Shown: positions 42,576-51,746 of the stretch, piece by piece
How the letters are laid out: each line of letters begins with the position of its first letter
Position numbering within the stretch: the stretch's first letter is position 1
Source: an uncultured delta proteobacterium
GTDB taxonomy: Bacteria; Desulfobacterota; Binatia; Binatales; Binataceae
Length of the DNA: 64,000 nt
Direction of reading: 5' to 3'
NCBI GenBank assembly: GCA_963794325.1
Contig: CAWCDG010000004.1
Coordinates: forward strand, 960,001 to 1,024,000
The notes under the pieces: generated by a model
Database searches by the model: none
Told to the model about the DNA's origin: nothing
What the model saw: only the letters and a program-made list of their open reading frames with translations
Program-made: the position numbers and the translations under genes

Positions 42576-43178
42576 ATGAGACGCACGGCATATCTCGTAA
42601 GCTTCGTGCTGGTGTTCTGCGCCGCATCCGCGCATGCGCAGGTGCCGGTCAGTCCGTTGATCGTGTCGCAGACCAGCGTGATACGGTTCACGCCGGCCGT
42701 ACCGAGCGGCGACGTGCGCGAAGGTTCGTGCTGGACGGAATCGATCGCCGTCGGCCGAAGTGGCGCGTGGCGATGCACCGTGGGCAACAGCATCAGCGAT
42801 CCATGTTTCACGATTTCCGCAAATCATAACGAACTCGTGTGCGATGCCAATCCCGCGCTGAAAAGGGACGGCTTCGTTTTGAAGCTGATGAAGCCGCTGC
42901 CCAAATCCTCGCGGCCAGATCAGAAAACGGAGCCGTGGGTTTTTCGGCTCGCTGACAATTCGATTTGCCAAGCGATGACCGGCACGCTGTCGCCGGTGAA
43001 CGGCGCGCCGGCGCGATGGTCATGCGCGATTCACATTCGCGATCAGGTCAGGCCGTCGGGATTGGTGACGAAACTTACGCCAGGAAAAATCTGGATGGCC
43101 GACAAATTTCCGGAAAGCGCGCGCGGCCAGAACGGGATCGAACCAATGCAGGTGCCGGTGAAGATGCTCTGGGAATGA
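42576..43178 (+). CDS. Hypothetical secreted Cys-rich protein
   Basis: Signal peptide (AHA); GSCW, AWRC, DPCF and further Cys residues. Confidence 0.6.
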   Translation: MRRTAYLVSFVLVFCAASAHAQVPVSPLIVSQTSVIRFTPAVPSGDVREGSCWTESIAVGRSGAWRCTVGNSISDPCFTISANHNELVCDANPALKRDGFVLKLMKPLPKSSRPDQKTEPWVFRLADNSICQAMTGTLSPVNGAPARWSCAIHIRDQVRPSGLVTKLTPGKIWMADKFPESARGQNGIEPMQVPVKMLWE

Positions 43179-43183
43179 GCGCG

Positions 43184-43687
43184 CTACTGCTTGCGCATCG
43201 CGCGCAATTGGCGGTGGGTTAGCATCCAGCGCAGCTGGCCACCGCCGCGCTCGAAGCGGGGGGGCAAGTCGATCGCGATACATCCACCGGTCTTCAATTT
43301 CAGATGAACCACATCGCTGGCGCCGGTCAGCAGAATCGACCCGACCGCGCTGAGTTGCGGCTCGTGCCCGACGATCATCACGTCCTCATGCTTTGAAAAT
43401 GCACGCAACGCATTCACCGCGTCGGTCGCCGCCACGCCGGTCGCGAGCGCGGGCAAAACCTGCGGCGGCGGATTGTTCTCGTAAGCAGCTGACACTATCT
43501 CGGCGGTTTCGGCTGCACGCGCGAGTGGACTCGTCAGGATCACATTGAACTTGAGACCCATCGCGCGCAGTCCCGCCGCCGCGTTGCGCATTTTTTCCTT
43601 CGATCGTTCAGTCAGTTTGCGCGCACCGTCGTCGCCGCTCGAGGCGGCCTCTTCGGCGGTCGCGTGACGCAGAATATAGAGCATCAT
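43184..43687 (-). CDS. sixA: SixA-type phosphohistidine phosphatase (in frame with the upstream CHAD ORF)
   Basis: LYILRHA, TSPLARAAETA and IVGHEP motifs. Confidence 0.85.
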   Translation of the reverse strand: MMLYILRHATAEEAASSGDDGARKLTERSKEKMRNAAAGLRAMGLKFNVILTSPLARAAETAEIVSAAYENNPPPQVLPALATGVAATDAVNALRAFSKHEDVMIVGHEPQLSAVGSILLTGASDVVHLKLKTGGCIAIDLPPRFERGGGQLRWMLTHRQLRAMRKQ

Positions 43688-44713
43688 GGGATTGATTCCG
43701 TGGCAGAATGCGAGTTCATCGAGTTGTGATTGGAGCGCGGTGGATCTTCTAAGTCTGGGTGCATGACTGGCGATCTGACTAATCGGATCTTTTTCGCCCG
43801 CATCTGCAACCGCCGAGGACAAACTCACCGGCTTGAGCGCCAATCTCCCGGCGCGGCGAATCTCCTCGAGCGTGTCATGCATCGCGTCGGATCGCTCGAA
43901 CTGCCGCCACGCCCGCATGCATTGCCGACGCAATTTATTTTCGCGACTGCCAAGCGACTGAATCAAGGCGCCGGCCGCGAGCATTGTTTTCGGCGGCGCC
44001 GCCGACGTTTCCGCATACGACAGCAGCCAGGCGGACGCGACCGCGATGTCGTGATAACTGCCGAGCAGTTCCTGCAGCTCTTCCAGCCGCCTTACGGTTT
44101 TCCGGTGGCGCTTGGCGCCCAGCGGCGCAATCATCTCGAGCTCGTAGCGCAGCCGCTTGATGCGAACGCGCAGCTTATGGAAAACCGGCACTGGAGCGTC
44201 GGTGGCGAGCTTTCCACCAAGGCGAGCTGCACCGCGCGAAGCCGGGCGGACCAACTGTGCGGCGACGATGCCCAGCCTGCGATCGGCGCCAACCTTTTTA
44301 ATCGCCGGATGCGCCAGCTTGGCCAGCAGATTTCGGTAACGCTTCGATTCGAACAGCTCGTGCAGCCTGGCTTGCTCGGACTTTCGCCCTTGTTCGAGCG
44401 CGGCCAGCATCGGCGCGAGCGCGTCTTTCAGACCGGGATCGATTTTAGTGGCGCGAGCGGCTATCAAGGCGGCGGTCACGTCGCATTCCCGGGCGCCGCC
44501 GGCCAGACTGCCAATCCAGGGAAGGTCGCGCCGAAAGATTTTGAGCTGCGCGGCGTAGATGACGCTCGAGAACAATTCGATTGTCGCGCGGAGCCGACGC
44601 GTCGCCACACGCAGTTGATGCAGCGGCTCCGCTTCGCCGAACTCCGCGGAACTCTGATGCCGCACCAACGATTCAACGCCGGACGCGATCGCTTTGCGCG
44701 CCGCGTCCGCCAC
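43688..44713 (-). CDS. CHAD domain polyphosphate-binding protein (reads into sixA without a stop)
   Basis: LHQLRVATRRLRA, ARECDV, FHKLRVRIKRLRY and LQELLGSYHD motifs. Confidence 0.85.
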
Positions 44714-44780
44714 CGTTTCCCCGGGGAAAGCGTTACCCTGCGCGGCGGCGCATTGAAGCGCGACTCATCTACCACCGTTG

Positions 44781-45539
44781 CTATTCCTTGCGTGTCGATG
44801 TCCCGTTCTCGGTGGAATCGGGATGAGGCTTGCCATTCGAGCGCGACAAATATTCGGCGATGTGCTTTCTGAGTTCGCCCTGGACTTCCTCGACCGGCAA
44901 GCGCGCATCGACCGACACGAACCCGAACTCGCTGGACAAGCGCCGGTACTCGTCGATCAGGCGGGTCTGGTAGCGCTCGAACGAATCGAACAGGTCGGTG
45001 CCGAGCGCAAGATGCATCCCGGATTCCCAGTAGTCCATCCCCTTGCCCATGATGACGCGCGGAATAAGCGATTCGACGTCGATGTCGAGGTAGAGGACGA
45101 GATCAGGGACGAGCGCCATGCCGAAAACCTCGCGCGTCCAATCAGGGTCGGCCCCCATCACCGAGTTGCGGGCGAACGCCGTGTACATGTAACGATCGGC
45201 GATCACGATGAAGCCCGCCTGCAGCGCCGGCAGGATTTCATGCTCGAGGCGATCGGCAAAATCCGCGGCATAGAGCAGCGAGAACGTCGTGACGGTGAGC
45301 TGATGGCCGGCCTTGGCCTCGTTGATGGTCTCGGAGAGCAGCGGCGATCGCGTCCATCCGGTGTTGCTGACGGCGTAGCCTTCCAGCTCGAGCCATGGGC
45401 GGAGCAACTCGATTTGTGCGGAGCGGCCGACGCCGTCGGTGCCTTCAATCGCGATCAAATGGCCGGGCAGCCGCTTTTTCGCGACGTACGGCAGGCCGTG
45501 CCCGTACCAGGTTTTAGCGTGGCTGCGATGTGGCGCCAT
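44781..45539 (-). CDS. Thymidylate-kinase-like protein 2 (degenerate P-loop), putative PPK3 subunit
   Basis: IEGTDGVGRSAQ, FSLLYAADFADR and ADRY motifs; start uncertain (45539 or 45572). Confidence 0.8.
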   Translation of the reverse strand: MAPHRSHAKTWYGHGLPYVAKKRLPGHLIAIEGTDGVGRSAQIELLRPWLELEGYAVSNTGWTRSPLLSETINEAKAGHQLTVTTFSLLYAADFADRLEHEILPALQAGFIVIADRYMYTAFARNSVMGADPDWTREVFGMALVPDLVLYLDIDVESLIPRVIMGKGMDYWESGMHLALGTDLFDSFERYQTRLIDEYRRLSSEFGFVSVDARLPVEEVQGELRKHIAEYLSRSNGKPHPDSTENGTSTRKE

Positions 45540-46380
45540 TTTTTCCGGTAGCTCGCTTGAGGTCGTAGTCACGCAGAATTTCCTGGACCATGGTACGCAC
45601 GACCTTCTGTTGATTGGGAATTTCGGCGGCCGCGTCGATCGGACGCATCCCGAACTCCTCCGTCAGTTGATCGTAAATTTCCAGCACGCGGCTCTGGAAC
45701 ATCCGGAAACTCTCCACCGGATCCGCGGAGAGGCCTACGTCCATTCCAGCCTCGTGGTACTTGAGCTTGGCGCGTCCCGACAGCAGTCGCTCGAGCGAAA
45801 TATCAATCGGCACGCGGAAGTAGAGCGTCAAGTCGGGCCGCAACGCCGGACTATAAACCGCACGGACCCAATCGGGATGCACACCGCGCGCGACGTCGCG
45901 CGCAAACGCGGTGTACACGTAGCGATCGGCGAGCACAATCATTCCAGCCTTCAGCGGCGGCAGTATCTGGTAGGTCAATCGATCGGCGAAATCGACCGCA
46001 TGCAGCAACGAGAACGTCGTTGGCGTCAGCAGATTCTTTTTCTTGCCGCGTTGCATCGAACGCCGCACCAGCCGCGACGAATTCCACTCCGTGAAATGGA
46101 CCGGGTAGCCGCGCGCCCGCAGCCATCGTTCGAGCAGCAGCAGTTGCGTCGATTTGCCCGAGCCGTCGATCCCCTCGACGCAGATCAAGCGCCCCTTATA
46201 AGGATGCGGAGTTTCGAGCAGAGTCTTGGGCGCGGTGCGGGTTGAGTACTTGGGCGGCGTCGAGGATGGAGTAACGTGGCCGTTAGACGAAGCAACGGCG
46301 GCGGGCAGCTCTAACGCTGCAGCACCACCTGGCGATCCAGCAGTCTCGATAACAGGTCCGTTCTTCTCTCGCATGTCCAC
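45514..46380 (-). CDS. Thymidylate-kinase-like protein 1, putative PPK3 subunit
   Basis: VEGIDGSGKSTQ, TEWNSS, FSLLHAVDFADR, ADRY and YHEAGMD motifs; start uncertain. Confidence 0.8.
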   Translation of the reverse strand: MDMREKNGPVIETAGSPGGAAALELPAAVASSNGHVTPSSTPPKYSTRTAPKTLLETPHPYKGRLICVEGIDGSGKSTQLLLLERWLRARGYPVHFTEWNSSRLVRRSMQRGKKKNLLTPTTFSLLHAVDFADRLTYQILPPLKAGMIVLADRYVYTAFARDVARGVHPDWVRAVYSPALRPDLTLYFRVPIDISLERLLSGRAKLKYHEAGMDVGLSADPVESFRMFQSRVLEIYDQLTEEFGMRPIDAAAEIPNQQKVVRTMVQEILRDYDLKRATGKNGATSQPR

Positions 46381-47825
46381 AGTTCGAGGTCGGCCTTCTC
46401 GCGCTTCGAATCGACTCCGACGATCACACGTCCCGGTGAATACCTGACCTCGATATTCTTAACCACACCGAAGTGGCTTCGATCCAGCGCGTCGGCGACA
46501 CGCAAAATCGCGGCGAGGCCCCTGATCACACGGCGCTTGGCGGGGCTGAGCGATTTCAAATCCGGCGAATCGAGTTTCGGGGCCTGCTTGCGATGCCCGC
46601 GAGCCGCCTGCGCGATGACCTCGATTTCGTCAGTGTCGAAGCCGAACAGCTCCGCATTCTTAATCAGGTAGTAAGAATGGCGATTGTGCCGGTCATGATC
46701 AATCGCGTGGCCTATATCATGCAATAAAGCCCCGAATTCAAGCAGTTCTCGCGAGGACTTGGGCAAGCCCAAAACCGGCGCCGTCGCATCGAACAGCTTC
46801 AGCGCGAGCTTCGCCACCTGTTTGCCATGCTCGTTGCTTCCGGTGAATCGAGTCGCCAAGGCGTTGACCGAACGGCGCCGCGCGTCAGCCGCCGATCGCG
46901 AATCAATCTTGCGCGCGAGCCCGAGCAGGACGCCCTCGCGCAGCGCCCAGGTGCATGCGACCAGATCCGGCGCACCGGATTTCTTCAGGATAAAATTCAC
47001 GAGCGTCGCCGCCGCGGGCATCAGGTCGACCCGCTTGGCGTCCATCCCGGGGAGATCGACGCGCAGCGCCGCGTTGGCTTCGACCAGGTCGCGCGTGAGA
47101 TCTGAAATTTCGCCGGCCGACGCGCTCGCGCCATGTAGCCGGCCAAGCTCCTCGCCGCGCGACGATCGCGCCATCGCGACCAGCGTGTTGATCGTCCCCG
47201 ACGTTCCGATCGCGCGGACCACACCCGCGCGCTTCACCTTGCGCATCAACGGGCCAATCACGCGCTCGAGATGCGCCTCGAGCTTGCTCAACTGCGTGCG
47301 CGTCGGCGGATCGTCGAGGAGGAATCTCTCCGCCAGCCGCGCCGCGCCGAGCTTCACGCTCCGCATCCACAGCGGTTTGCCGTCGCGCACCAGCACCAGC
47401 TCGACGCTGCCACCGCCGACATCAACCAGCAGATGAGGCCCGCCGTCGAGACCGAGGGCATGACGCGCCGCCTGGAAAATCAGCCGCGCCTCGTCGAGGC
47501 CGGAGATCACTTCGACCGTCAGGCCCGTCTCGCGCTTGATGCGCCGGATGAACTCCGTGCGATTGCGCGCCTCGCGCACCGCGCTGGTCGCGACCGCGCG
47601 CAACTTCTCGACCCTGCGCACTCGCAGCAGTTTTTTGAAATTGACCAGCGCGCGCACCGCGAGGTCCATCGACTCCGCCGTCAGGCGTCCCGTAGTGAAC
47701 GAGCGCCGCCCCAGCCGCACCATCTCTTTGACCCGATCGACGACCTCGAGATGGCCCTCTCGGCTCACGTCCGCCACGATCATATGCACGGAGTTGGATC
47801 CGACATCGATCGCTCCCAGCCGCAT
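46311..47825 (-). CDS. ppx: Exopolyphosphatase Ppx/GppA with HD domain
   Basis: IDVGSNS, ATSAVREA, DVGGGSVE, ALREG and LLHDIG motifs. Confidence 0.93.
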   Translation of the reverse strand: MRLGAIDVGSNSVHMIVADVSREGHLEVVDRVKEMVRLGRRSFTTGRLTAESMDLAVRALVNFKKLLRVRRVEKLRAVATSAVREARNRTEFIRRIKRETGLTVEVISGLDEARLIFQAARHALGLDGGPHLLVDVGGGSVELVLVRDGKPLWMRSVKLGAARLAERFLLDDPPTRTQLSKLEAHLERVIGPLMRKVKRAGVVRAIGTSGTINTLVAMARSSRGEELGRLHGASASAGEISDLTRDLVEANAALRVDLPGMDAKRVDLMPAAATLVNFILKKSGAPDLVACTWALREGVLLGLARKIDSRSAADARRRSVNALATRFTGSNEHGKQVAKLALKLFDATAPVLGLPKSSRELLEFGALLHDIGHAIDHDRHNRHSYYLIKNAELFGFDTDEIEVIAQAARGHRKQAPKLDSPDLKSLSPAKRRVIRGLAAILRVADALDRSHFGVVKNIEVRYSPGRVIVGVDSKREKADLELWTCERRTDLLSRLLDRQVVLQR

Positions 47826-48037
47826 GGATAGAAGGTAGCCTTCCACGCGCTCGCTGTCATCCACGCTGCCCGAGCCCCGCACCGGCGCGCCAAAATATTC
47901 GCGCAATCATCCGGTGTTGATTAGAAGCGATGCGCGTTACGCCGCGATGAACGCCGAATGTCGAATTTGTTTTTCGCAGTATCCTCGCCGACCCTGTGGG
48001 TTTAATCTGTTGTCAGCACGCCTTACGGACGATTCTG

Positions 48038-49642
48038 TTGGCAGCCGCAGCCTCATCCACGATTGGAACCGACTTCCCCGAGTACGGATCCTCCAGCCAC
48101 AAGTGGCTGATCGCGCTGGCCGTGATGCTCGGCACGACGCTCGAAGTCCTCGACACCTCGATCGTCAACGTCGCGCTGCCGCACATGCAGGGCAGCTTTT
48201 CCGCGAGCGTCGACGAGATCGCATGGGTGCTCACCAGCTACCTCGTCGCCAACGGGATCATGATTCCCATGACGGGATGGATCTCGTCGCGCTTCGGCCG
48301 CAAGCGCTACTTCCTGATGTCGGTCGCAGTGTTCGTCGCCGCGTCGGGTCTGTGCGGCGCGGCTCAATCGCTCGATCAGATGGTCGTATTCCGATTGATA
48401 CAGGGCGCCGCCGGCGCCGCGATGGTCCCGTCGTCCCAGGCGATCCTGATGGAAACGTTCCCGCCCAACGAGCAGCAGCTCGCGATGGCGACGTGGGGGA
48501 TGGGCCTGATGGTCGCGCCGATCATGGGCCCGACGCTCGGCGGATGGATCACCGACAACTGGAACTGGCGCTGGAATTTTTTCATCAACCTGCCGATCGG
48601 CGCCGCCGCATTCCTGATGGTCTGGACTTTCGTGCACGACCCCGCATACCTGCGCACGAGGCGCGCAAAGGGCGGCAAGACCGACTACACCGGCATCATC
48701 CTGCTCGTCGTCGGCCTCGGCCTGGCGCAGCTCGTTCTCGATCGCGGCCAGCGCGCCGACTGGTTCAGCTCGCCGTGGGTCGTCTGGTGCACAATTTTAG
48801 CCGCGATCTGCATCATCGGACTGACCATCAACGAATTGCGCACGCCGGAACCGATTCTCGATCTTTCAATCCTCGGCATTCCGGTCTTCTCGATGTCCGT
48901 GATGCTGATGGTCGCGATGAGTTTCGCGCTGTTCGGCACCGGACTGTTGAATCCGATTTTTCTGCAGGAGCTGATGGGCTACAGCGCGTGGAAAGCGGGT
49001 CTGGTGCTCGCGCCACGAGGACTCGGCACGATGGCTGCGATGCTGATCGTCGGGCAACTCGCGCGTTACCGCTACGACACGCGTCCGCTGATCGGCGTCG
49101 GCTTCGTCATCATGGCAATCGCGCTGTGGCAGATGGCGGGATGGAACACCGACGTCAGCACCTGGACGGTCACGTGGCCCAGCCTCGTCATGGGAGTCGG
49201 GATGGGTATGATATTCCCGACGCTGTCCGCCATCACGCTTTCATGCGTCAGCCGCGAGCGCGTCGGCTACGCCGCGAGCCTCTACAACATGATGCGCAAC
49301 ACCGGCGCGGCGATCGGCATCTCGTACATGACGACCGTGCTCGTCGATCACGAGCAGACGCATCAGTCGTACCTGGTCGCACATTTCACCGTCTTCGATG
49401 CGTGGAAAATGAGCAACGCGGCGCGCCTCACTCCCGGCGCGCGCAGCTTTGACTATATGCCGCAGATGCTCACTGGCCAGAAGCAGGGACTAGGAATGGT
49501 GTACGGCATGATTCAGCGCCAGGCGATGATGCTGTCCTTCAACGACATCTACCGCACACTGGCTATTGTAATGATGATACTGATTCCAACCTTCTTACTA
49601 TTGCGTCGCGGGCAACCCGTCAGTGGCATGGCCGCTCACTAG
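48038..49642 (+). CDS. DHA2 (EmrB/QacA) MFS efflux permease
   Basis: LDTSIVNVALP, WVLTSYL and WRWNFFINLPIG motifs; start uncertain. Confidence 0.92.
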   Translation: MAAAASSTIGTDFPEYGSSSHKWLIALAVMLGTTLEVLDTSIVNVALPHMQGSFSASVDEIAWVLTSYLVANGIMIPMTGWISSRFGRKRYFLMSVAVFVAASGLCGAAQSLDQMVVFRLIQGAAGAAMVPSSQAILMETFPPNEQQLAMATWGMGLMVAPIMGPTLGGWITDNWNWRWNFFINLPIGAAAFLMVWTFVHDPAYLRTRRAKGGKTDYTGIILLVVGLGLAQLVLDRGQRADWFSSPWVVWCTILAAICIIGLTINELRTPEPILDLSILGIPVFSMSVMLMVAMSFALFGTGLLNPIFLQELMGYSAWKAGLVLAPRGLGTMAAMLIVGQLARYRYDTRPLIGVGFVIMAIALWQMAGWNTDVSTWTVTWPSLVMGVGMGMIFPTLSAITLSCVSRERVGYAASLYNMMRNTGAAIGISYMTTVLVDHEQTHQSYLVAHFTVFDAWKMSNAARLTPGARSFDYMPQMLTGQKQGLGMVYGMIQRQAMMLSFNDIYRTLAIVMMILIPTFLLLRRGQPVSGMAAH

Positions 49643-50170
49643 CTATTGCATTTCCGCGAGCGCGCGCTCGAAAACCTCCAACGACTGGCGATCGAACAGC
49701 ACGAACTCCACCCGCTCCAGCGTCGTCGGGCTGCCGAGATGCGCGCGCACTTCCTCGAGCATCACCTCGGCGCATCGCTCAATTGGAAAACCCGCGATGC
49801 CCGTGCCGATCGCGGGAAATGCGATCGTCTTGAGTGAGTTCTCATTGGCGCGCATCAGCGAGTTGCGAGTCGCCGCGCGCAGATTCGCCTCCGACGTGGG
49901 TTCTCCCAGACGCATGCTCGCCGCATGAATCACATGGCGCGCCCGCAACTTTCCCGCGCCGGTGATCGCCGCTTCGCCCAGCGCAATCGTGCCGATCTTG
50001 TCGCACTCCTGCTGAATGCGCGGCCCACCCTTGACCCGAATCGCGCCCGCAACGCCGCCGCCCAGCATCAGATCGTTGTTCGCAGCATTCACGATCGCAT
50101 CCACATCCGCTTCCGTCAGGTCGCCCTGCCGAAACCCGATCTTCGCTCGCCAATCTTTGTTCATCGCCAT
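49643..50170 (-). CDS. Macro domain protein (ADP-ribose hydrolase)
   Basis: GDLT, IVNAAN, GGGVAGAI and FPAIGTGIAG motifs. Confidence 0.92.
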   Translation of the reverse strand: MAMNKDWRAKIGFRQGDLTEADVDAIVNAANNDLMLGGGVAGAIRVKGGPRIQQECDKIGTIALGEAAITGAGKLRARHVIHAASMRLGEPTSEANLRAATRNSLMRANENSLKTIAFPAIGTGIAGFPIERCAEVMLEEVRAHLGSPTTLERVEFVLFDRQSLEVFERALAEMQ

Positions 50171-50188
50171 GTTATTATCACGCCAACC

Positions 50189-51746
50189 GTGCGCCCGAGG
50201 AAAACAAACGTTCTGCGGCTCGCCGCAGCACTCTTGACGCTCGCTGGATGCAGCCATTATCGCGTCGAGAGTCCGCCGGGGACGATTCAGGTCGATATCG
50301 AAACCTCGCCGACCTCGACCGACCCGCGCTTTGGCACCGACGCAATGTCGTCACGGATCAACGAACTCATTTTCGATTCCCTCGCCAAGGCCGATCGCGA
50401 CGGCAATTTCGCCGGCCGTCTTGCCGAGAGCATCGAGCGTCCGTCGCCAACCGAGATCGTGTTTCACCTCAGGCACGGCGTGCGCTTCAGCGACGGTCGC
50501 GAACTTACCGCGCGCGACGTGGTATTCACCTACAATTCGATCATCGCCCCGGAATCGATGTCGCCAAAACGCGCCAGCCTCGAGGAGTTGAAATCAATCG
50601 AAGCGGTCGACGATTACACAGTCGTCATGACCATTGCGCATCAGTACTCGCCGGCGCTCGAGATGGCGACTGAAGGCATCGTGCCCGCCGGCACTACGCT
50701 GCCCGCGCAAGGAAGCGGCGCCGCGCCGGTGGGTAGTGGACCCTTTAAGATGGTCGCCTACTCGCGCGATGAATTCTTGCGGCTTGAAAGCAATACGTAC
50801 TATGCGCGTCAGCCCGGCACCGCTCAGTCGATTTTTTTCAAGATCGTGCCGGACCCGACAGTACGCGCGCTCGAACTCGCAGAAGGCGTTTGCGACTTCT
50901 CGCCGAACAATATTCAGCTCGACGTGCTGCCGTGGCTCGCCGCACACCAGTCGCTCGAGATCAGCAACACCCCGGGCACCACCTATCGCTACCTGTCTTT
51001 CAATTTTCGCAATCCACAGCTGCGCGATATTCGCGTGCGCCGCGCCATCGCCTATGCAATCGATCGCGACACAATAGTCAGTACGGTTTTGCGAGGTACT
51101 GGCCGAATAGCCACTGGCATGCTCTCGCCCGAAAACTGGGCATACGACGGTAACGTGACTAGCTATTCGTACAATCCAGAAAAAGCGCGTCAGCTTCTCG
51201 ATCAGGCTGGCTACCCCGCGGGCAAAAATGGTCTGCGCGGGCTTCGCTTCGAATTCAAAACTACTTCCGAAGGCGCGCGCATCGGCGAAATCTTTCAGGC
51301 GATGCTTCGGCGGGTGGGTATTGAACTGAGTATTCGTTCCCTCGAATTCGCCGCCTATTACGCCGACATCCAGACCGGCAACTTCGACCTGACCTCGTTG
51401 CAGTGGATCGGAATCAACGATCCGAATCAATACTACATGGTGTTCGATTCGAAGAAGACGCCGCCCCATGGCGAGAATCGCGGCTACTATTCAAATCCTG
51501 AAATGGACCGGCTGGTCGAAGCAGGAAAAAGCTTTCGTCGATCGCGACGCACGGAAACAAATCTACGCGCAGGTTCAGCAACTCGCTGCCGACGATCTGC
51601 CCTACGTGTCGATGTGGTGGGTCGACAACGTTGCCGTGATGAATCGACGACTGGCGGGCTTCGAGCCCTACCCGAACGGCAGCTTCCGCTCACTCGCGAC
51701 GCTCACCCTCGTCGGCCCCGGCGGCGCCGGAGAGCCGTCTGAATGA
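50189..51746 (+). CDS. Peptide/nickel ABC substrate-binding lipoprotein (family 5), apparent +1 frameshift near 51526-51535
   Basis: LAGC lipobox, VRFSDG, PVGSGPF and VRRAIAYAID; the C-terminus (RKQIYAQVQQ) lies in the next frame. Confidence 0.85.

Follow-up and report, generated by a model that had tools for sequence, protein, structure and literature searches.

A candidate bacterial family-3 polyphosphate kinase operon in a Binataceae genome from soil

The polyphosphate locus and its gene order

The window analysed here is a stretch of 64,000 nucleotides from an uncultured bacterium of the Binataceae (assembly GCA_963794325.1, contig CAWCDG010000004.1, positions 960,001 to 1,024,000). Between positions 43184 and 47825 it holds a putative polyphosphate (polyP) operon, in which two genes resembling thymidylate kinases (Tmk) stand together with genes for an exopolyphosphatase (Ppx), a CHAD protein and a SixA-like histidine phosphatase. 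An earlier note, made from the sequence letters, had read the two kinases as a bacterial heteromeric polyphosphate kinase and not as dTMP kinases, and this reading is supported by the phylogeny, the neighbourhood, the presence of a separate tmk in the genome and a model of the complex. Judged from sequence comparison, we consider it probable (roughly 80%) that the two genes are orthologues of the catalytic (cPPK3, or c) and the regulatory (rPPK3, or r) subunits of PPK3, and that the unit is a bacterial family-3 polyphosphate kinase operon. The five coding regions are co-directed and tightly packed, as had been described, and every long open reading frame (ORF) of the coding strand from 43184 to 47906 lies on the minus strand. 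The five-gene layout was right in substance, although it is obtained after correction of two indels, since in the letters of the window CHAD and SixA form one ORF of 509 amino acids. The genes, in the order of reading, are as follows.

46311..47825 (longest ORF to 47906), minus strand: ppx, exopolyphosphatase; Pfam PF02541 213 bits, PF21447 107 bits, HD 45 bits
45514..46380, minus strand: gene 1 (Tmk-like 1), predicted cPPK3, 288 amino acids; Pfam Thymidylate_kin 71 bits
44781..45539 (ORF to 45572), minus strand: gene 2 (Tmk-like 2), predicted rPPK3, 252 amino acids from M12; Pfam Thymidylate_kin 70 bits
43684..44775, minus strand: CHAD gene, indel-corrected; Pfam CHAD 140 bits
43184..43687, minus strand: gene of a SixA-like histidine phosphatase, 167 amino acids, starting MMLYILRHA; TIGR00249 77.5 bits (cut-off 74.5), His_Phos_1 36.6 bits

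The motif strings on which the earlier reading was built were all present, i.e., GIDGSGKST and GTDGVGRSA, FSLLHAVDFADR and FSLLYAADFADR, and YHEAGMD and YWESGMH. The two kinases are indeed paralogues, with 44% identity over residues 62-270 (E 2.4e-53). Their ORFs overlap (45514..46380 and 44781..45572), and homologues of rPPK3 are mostly about 252 amino acids long. Gene 1 begins with a low-complexity extension of about 60 amino acids rich in Pro, Ala, Ser and Thr (46204-46380), with an overlap of 70 nucleotides with the 3' end of ppx. This extension was matched from residue 1 in all five pair-bearing genomes of the same genus and in several of the same family, and no match to it was found in more distant genomes of the class. 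The product of ppx is a long-form exopolyphosphatase, composed of the Ppx/GppA domain and domain III/HD. It scored 272.5 bits with TIGR03706, under the cut-off of 307, and its start is likely M28, at 47825, because position 2 of that profile meets residue 30.

Identity of the two kinases

When the PDB was searched, the best match of both kinases was 2plr/5h70, with 196.7 bits for gene 1 and 149.6 bits for gene 2, whereas the best true Tmk reached 54.7 and 51.8 bits, respectively. The entries matched by both (2plr, 4nzy, 4rzx and 5h70) carry the name 'probable thymidylate kinase', and 5h70 is the Sulfurisphaera tokodaii homologue of cPPK3 (Hofmann et al., J Biol Chem 2026, PMC12995831; all statements on this paper refer to the available part of its text). 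The dTMP kinase equivalog cut-off of TIGR00041, 83.25 bits, was missed by gene 1 (76.8) and by gene 2 (82.8). The PPK2 profile PF03976 gave no match to either gene at E 0.01 or better. Homologues are named 'dTMP kinase' in public sources, and the close ones are labelled Candidatus Binatus or Binataceae.

A canonical tmk, for which the earlier note had proposed to search, was found elsewhere in the genome (4.45 Mb, 10 contigs, 85% complete). It lies at C4:1879362-1879943 as an ORF of 213 amino acids (PF02223, 170 bits) and is followed by a 359-aa holB-like ORF (DNA polymerase III delta', named by eye). The same search, which was also to cover ppk1 and ppk2, returned one PPK1 (181.5 bits) and two PPK2s (334 and 254 bits).

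In the phylogeny gene 1 grouped with cPPK3, gene 2 grouped with rPPK3, and both stood apart from canonical Tmk, as the earlier reading had it. In the more careful of two trees (IQ-TREE, LG+C20+F+G4 PMSF, 55 rows, 237 columns; bootstrap correlation 0.978, not fully settled) five canonical Tmks, the genome's own included, were split from the c and r rows at 100/99. The 25 c rows lay on one side of a branch at 97/86, with gene 1 (win_T1) and L092_c among them; the L092 c protein matched the 2plr chain with 467 bits over all 213 residues and so anchors this side to a solved cPPK3 homologue. The 25 r rows lay on one side of a branch at 93/59, and 24 of them, including gene 2 (win_T2) and the Sulfolobales-like r rows, were held together at 100/99. 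Outside this group stands L031_r, the one r that has Lys in Walker A. From the quick tree of 87 rows, 32 had been omitted before this run, comprising the L076_r and L080_r loci and other long or redundant rows; the quick tree gave the same picture except for two second genes.

The two subunits differ in their motifs. Gene 1 has the Walker A sequence GIDGSGKST, the DRY motif, a KKK basic patch and the lid KLKYHEAG. In gene 2 the Walker A sequence is GTDGVGRSA, with Lys changed to Arg, the DRY is kept, the basic patch is absent and the N-terminus carries WYGHGLPY. The positions that distinguish c from r, with percentages calculated from 38 c rows and 38 r rows, were:

Walker A, c K76 / r R50: Lys in 100% of c rows, Arg in 92% of r rows
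c E98 / r G72: fixed Glu in c, fixed Gly in r
c H127 / r Y101: fixed His in c, fixed Tyr in r
c K207 / r D180: Lys in c, Asp in r
Basic residues K114, K115 and K207: in 82-92% of c rows, in 0-29% of r rows

The Walker A Arg of r was seen in all 21 r rows of alignment A2 and in 63 of the 64 loci where the pattern found the motif. All 21 rows of A2 likewise have the DRY of r (D115-R116-Y117), and it was located in 61 of the 72 r-type genes; the DRX pattern missed the motif or matched elsewhere in 10 of the 72 r-type and 12 of the 74 c-type genes, and these cases are not evidence of motif loss. The EP motif, given as dTMP-binding residues in the text of PMC12995831, is not conserved in either gene of the window according to alignment A3: at its position the genome's own tmk has HEPGG, c has TEWNSS (EW) and r has TGWTRS (GW). 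A five-residue insert that follows DRY in the own tmk is missing in both c and r. The r of the Binataceae type has Met (M139) and His (H187) where 97% of r rows have Arg and Asp, and these two residues are common to Binataceae-type homologues at 76-95% identity.

Inactivity of r has been attributed to the lost arginine of DRX, a statement made for Saci_2020 and STK_15420 (PMC12995831). The r of the window does not show this loss, as it carries ADRY. Sulfolobales-like r forms have ADGY, together with a Walker A of either GIEGSGRTA (L090, L092) or GIMSSGKTT/GITNSGKTT (L097, L099), and the Lys-to-Arg change is therefore not universal there. Since DRY is kept in most r and ADGY occurs only in the Sulfolobales-like ones, the lost DRX arginine seems to characterise the Sulfolobales lineage and not the family as a whole. 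What r subunits widely share is, on these alignments, the Lys-to-Arg change in Walker A, which does not appear in the available text of PMC12995831.

The pairing of the two genes is conserved, and genes of polyP metabolism recur beside it, in line with what the earlier note had suggested for the neighbourhood. A scan of species-representative genomes with alignment A1 of diverse relatives gave at least 600 pattern matches, and 576 of these 600 encode a relative. The best 80 of at least 576 were taken as related loci; 74 were PPK3-type and 6 were canonical tmk loci (71-79 bits to gene 1). A c-type ORF was directly followed by an r-type ORF in 72 of the 74. With iterated profiles and the available flanks, PPX was found in 46, SixA in 28 and CHAD in 26 of the 74 PPK3-type loci, and at least one of the three in 50 of them versus none of the 6 canonical tmk loci. 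These counts are lower bounds, with many contigs ending near the pair; single-sequence phmmer gave CHAD in 17 of 74. According to record titles 62 of the 74 loci are bacterial, from 12 named phyla, and 8 are archaeal, from 4 phyla, with 4 unassigned, the bacterial ones being led by Acidobacteriota (21), Verrucomicrobiota (11) and Chloroflexota (10). Among 1.84 billion cluster representatives there were 9567 hits at E<=0.001, 1884 at E<=1e-10 and 327 at E<=1e-30. Of 401 Thermoproteota genomes searched with the Sulfolobales-like P0351, 54 had a match at E<=1e-20, and the order sixA-ppx-c-r was present in all ten Sulfolobales-like loci examined, which were the best-scoring of the top group of fourteen.

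Within the class, 121 genomes were sampled, including the window's own (G000) and an unpublished one (G490), which is PPK3-negative. Gene 1 had a match at E<=1e-25 in 35 of them, with two adjacent matches in 34 of the 35. The distribution was patchy by family, from ten of fourteen genomes in f1 to none of fourteen in f7, and the pair was present in five of six further genomes of the same genus. PPK1 was found in 74 and PPK2 in 82 of the 121 genomes; among the 35 PPK3-positive ones a hand tally gave 18 with PPK1 over the cut-off, 29 with PPK2 and 4 with neither. As a separate observation, ppk1 lies on the same contig as the PPK3 pair at a distance of 11-27 kb in four of the five pair-bearing genomes of the genus (G420, G438, G456 and G506), and at about 446 kb in G482 and about 350 kb in the window's genome.

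Several relatives have other architectures. P0243 (460 amino acids) holds two PPK3-type domains in one chain. P0251, P0264, P0265 and P0309 (621-696 amino acids) end in an HD/Ppx domain III, and Pfam recognised two Tmk stretches in the first three and one in P0309. Long c-type PPK3-domain proteins were also recorded (P0298, P0307, P0318, P0321, P0329, P0386, P0301, P0323, P0382 and P0304), in several architectures: an MFS transporter with PPK3-type and DUF2252/APH domains (771-1276 amino acids), SPX with PPK3-type and DUF2252 (794 amino acids), and InPase with PPK3-type, one of the latter, of 2575 amino acids, having ART-PolyVal in addition. A literature search gave no paper on DUF2252 together with polyphosphate among the matches listed.

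The complex was modelled with two r chains and residues 56-288 of c, in three runs and with three controls. The model passed its controls, with ipSAE of 0.67, 0.68 and 0.64 against 0.00 for the best of the three controls; at the mark applied to ipSAE, 116 of 157 solved complexes pass, as against 2 of 215 mismatched pairs. Between runs at least 82% of contacts agreed, with a partner pLDDT of 82 or more. The confident part of the predicted interface joins residues 104, 117-136 and 165-178 of c with residues 14-18, 80-100 and 134-141 of one r copy, and it takes in the r-specific N-terminal motif YGHGLPY and the helix with the fixed His/Tyr difference. The model, which had been named in the earlier note as a check, supports binding of r to c and does not show it.

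The CHAD-SixA reading frame and the surroundings of the operon

In the letters of the window the ORF 43184..44713 encodes 509 amino acids, with CHAD at residues 8-230 and SixA (TIGR00249) at residues 343-497. All 120 homologues listed for this ORF are CHAD-only proteins of about 290-420 amino acids, which cover about 38-70% of it. The nearest, P0390 (363 amino acids, 97% identical), starts with MVDESRF 21 residues further upstream; this start corresponds to position 44775 of the window in a different frame, and its end, ATESIP, is encoded in that same other frame. The stretch was also compared with contigs (Logan) of four public runs labelled soil metagenome. Behind 44722, at a run of four G in the window, contigs of three of the four runs (X1, X2 and X3) have one more G, and these contigs were otherwise identical to the window, with no other letter differing over 850, 250 and 470 bases. 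One base, at 43773 or 43775, was missing in contigs of two of the four runs (X1 and X2). The best-matching run may be the window's own source sample, so that the comparison tests the consensus and is no independent biological evidence. Of the two indels (44719-44726 and 43773-43775), one sits in a G/C homopolymer. After both changes the TGA of CHAD and the ATG of sixA overlap as ATGA. We read the single CHAD-SixA ORF as the probable product of two assembly indels. A genuine CHAD-SixA fusion protein was considered and rejected, as it is contradicted by the CHAD-only homologues, the frames of P0390 and the contigs from the reads. The assembly of the window may contain further single-base errors of this kind.

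The flanking genes are unrelated; besides one unassigned ORF they comprise genes for an OPT transporter, a weak GH99-like protein, and MFS, Macro and SBP_bac_5 proteins. The polyP unit therefore stands alone. Scans of 42800-48300 showed no excess over chance, with one promoter-like site versus 1.2 expected in a consensus scan and six terminator-like sites versus 5.5 expected. The RNA runs X18-X20 contained only 0.05-0.06 of the window's words. In the SBP_bac_5 ORF (49925-51742, plus strand) an odd Arg-rich C-terminal tail extends beyond the end of the Pfam match (residue 507 of 605), and with its long N-terminal part the ORF also overlaps the Macro-domain gene of the opposite strand; this ORF may reflect another frame error or a wrong start.

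Proposed function and comparison with known systems

The biochemistry of PPK3 is known from one thermoacidophilic archaeon, Sulfolobus acidocaldarius, whose enzyme (SaPPK3) is a heteromeric alpha2beta2 complex of Saci_2019 (cPPK3) and Saci_2020 (rPPK3). The reaction is reversible, with a specific activity 50-fold higher when ATP is made out of polyP and ADP; cPPK3 alone had a tenth of the activity and rPPK3 alone had none, and characterised members of the clade were without dTMP kinase activity (PMC12995831). By homology, the cPPK3 of the window would bind ADP or ATP in its intact P-loop and polyP in a basic cleft, and would transfer the terminal phosphate according to polyP(n) + ADP <-> polyP(n-1) + ATP. 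The r subunit would be a paralogue without catalysis of its own, binding to cPPK3 and increasing the activity of the latter via oligomerisation, while Ppx would hydrolyse polyP to Pi and the CHAD protein would sit on polyP granules. The operon may in this way form a polyP-mobilising branch that makes ATP out of polyP when the energy charge is low and yields Pi by way of Ppx. A polyP-mobilising unit is the most likely role in our analysis, because the classical synthase PPK1 and two PPK2s are present in the genome and SaPPK3 favours ATP formation. For the same two reasons the earlier description of a complete module for synthesis, binding and degradation was overstated.

Several points weigh against the assignment to PPK3 or against parts of it. 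The only PPK3 that has been tested is from a thermoacidophilic archaeon, with identities of 46-49% in c and 22-25% in r (versus win_T1). The genome of the window has PPK1 and PPK2, and 31 of the 35 PPK3-positive genomes of the class have one or both by the hand tally, whereas most PPK3 genomes are stated to be without PPK1 and PPK2 (PMC12995831); that remark therefore fails in this lineage. In the tree of 87 rows, L076_r and L080_r, divergent second genes of Vicinamibacterales, group with long-branch Tmk, and in the tree of 55 rows the support for monophyly of r is moderate (93/59), its bootstrap not being fully settled. The predicted interface consists, on the c side, of helices 117-136 and 165-178, only one r copy touches c with confidence, and the pass of the model may reflect memory of, or likeness to, solved Tmk-fold dimers. 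The inactivity of r is not established either, because the r of the window keeps DRY, contrary to the published explanation. Finally, CHAD as written is frameshifted twice, and if this is real, a part of the module is damaged.

The last point leads to a reading in which the module is decaying in this strain, with real frameshifts in CHAD and an r that is a non-functional remnant. The two frame breaks in the letters of the window would agree with it, as would M139 and H187, which occupy positions held elsewhere by Arg (97%) and Asp (97%). The otherwise identical contigs from the reads, however, carry the extra G, and those of two runs drop the extra base; one of the indels falls in a homopolymer, as is typical for errors of assembly; no other ORF is broken, and five of six further genomes of the genus also have the pair. 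M139 and H187, moreover, also occur in Binataceae-type homologues (76-95% identity) and so are conserved traits of the lineage. We regard decay as very improbable. No more weight can be given to the idea that both genes are kinases of dTMP or of a modified or other nucleoside monophosphate that merely stand beside polyP genes. The Pfam Thymidylate_kin matches of 71 and 70 bits are well over the cut-off of 27 bits, homologues are named 'dTMP kinase', and the Tmk fold and the motifs of the ATP site are kept. Against this, a canonical tmk exists elsewhere, the tree splits the pair from Tmk at 100/99, the EP motif is absent, the equivalog cut-off was missed by both genes, and the characterised members of the clade lacked dTMP kinase activity (PMC12995831).

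A further alternative accepts a PPK3-type pair but holds that r is not inert, i.e., that it binds a nucleotide or the phosphate chain and acts as an allosteric sensor (for example of ATP/ADP) or as a slow catalyst. A strictly conserved site is usually a used one, and in r the Arg in place of Lys stands in 63 of the 64 genes where the motif was located and in all 21 A2 rows, together with the invariant D115-R116-Y117 and the lid Arg; the Sulfolobales-like r with ADGY is on a very long branch and may thus be a derived exception. In P-loop NTPases, however, a change of this Lys to Arg generally abolishes phosphoryl transfer. Also, r is without the basic residues conserved in c, and two residues nearly invariant in c and r alike are gone from the r of the window's lineage (Arg replaced by M139, Asp by H187). 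The r of SaPPK3 was inactive when alone (PMC12995831). As a replacement for an inert r we find this alternative unlikely, though less so than the two above. A related and slightly more probable proposal, still a doubtful one, is that r in bacteria is a ligand-binding sensor that reads the ATP/ADP or the polyP state and sets the direction or rate of the kinase, with the explanation by DRX loss holding for Sulfolobales only. DRY, the lid Arg and the Walker A Arg are kept in r across 12 bacterial phyla and in Nitrososphaerota-type archaea, and the conserved N-terminal YGxGLP motif of r is placed against the catalytic subunit by the complex model. We thus retain as the preferred reading a PPK3 operon in which c would be the catalytic and r the regulatory subunit, as gene content, clade membership, the conserved pairing and the motif pattern are those of PPK3; its activity, the direction of the reaction, the heteromer and the inactivity of r we infer.

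The idea of bacterial PPK3 operons is already in print. Predicted operons of c and r with PPX, SixA, PhoE, CHAD, NUDIX or Pst genes have been described, bacterial ones with PPX, SixA and CHAD among them, and PPK3 is said to occur in 'a few taxonomically scattered bacteria' (PMC12995831). The present analysis makes small additions, namely the conserved Arg-for-Lys change and the retained DRY in bacterial r, the presence of PPK1 and PPK2 in the same genomes, the wide spread among soil phyla, and the CHAD indels. As homologues are still named 'dTMP kinase', polyP metabolism is under-annotated in common soil phyla, for example Acidobacteriota, Verrucomicrobiota, Chloroflexota and Binatota. A pair from a soil bacterium whose genome holds PPK1 and PPK2 as well lends itself to asking whether PPK3 is an 'emergency' enzyme making ATP from polyP beside a separate synthase, and it is equally suited to asking what role a regulatory subunit with Arg for Lys has.

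Among known systems, SaPPK3 is the closest in arrangement. In both cases adjacent Tmk-fold paralogues, c followed by r, stand beside ppx and a SixA-like gene, with a canonical tmk elsewhere; c has the intact P-loop, DRY and the basic patch, r is without the basic patch, and the subunits fall into the same c and r clades. The pair of the window differs in being bacterial and from soil DNA, and its activity is a predicted one. Its r keeps the DRX arginine reported as lost in rPPK3 (PMC12995831) and bears at its N-terminus a (F/W/Y)YGxG(L/I)P motif not present in Sulfolobales-like r; a CHAD gene is part of its operon, and PPK1 and two PPK2s are in its genome. STK_15430 of S. tokodaii (PDB 2plr, 4nzy, 4rzx and 5h70) aligned nearly end to end with both kinases of the window and has about 46% identity to its c. 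That structure was solved alone, and no heteromer structure turned up in the PDB search. Canonical dTMP kinase (TIGR00041, PF02223) has the fold, Walker A, DRY and the lid arginine in common with the pair, but forms a separate clade (100/99), and its EP motif and the five-residue insert after DRY, the latter as seen in the genome's own tmk, are absent from the pair. The two-domain class II PPK2 of Pseudomonas aeruginosa (PA3455) likewise combines an active P-loop unit with an inactive paralogous unit for oligomerisation, and its equilibrium is likewise towards polyP-dependent phosphorylation of nucleotides (PMC12995831). It belongs to another family, with no PF03976 match in the present pair, and the two units of the window are separate genes. 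In this they also differ from the fused c-r forms of PPK3 that exist in relatives, such as P0243 and others.

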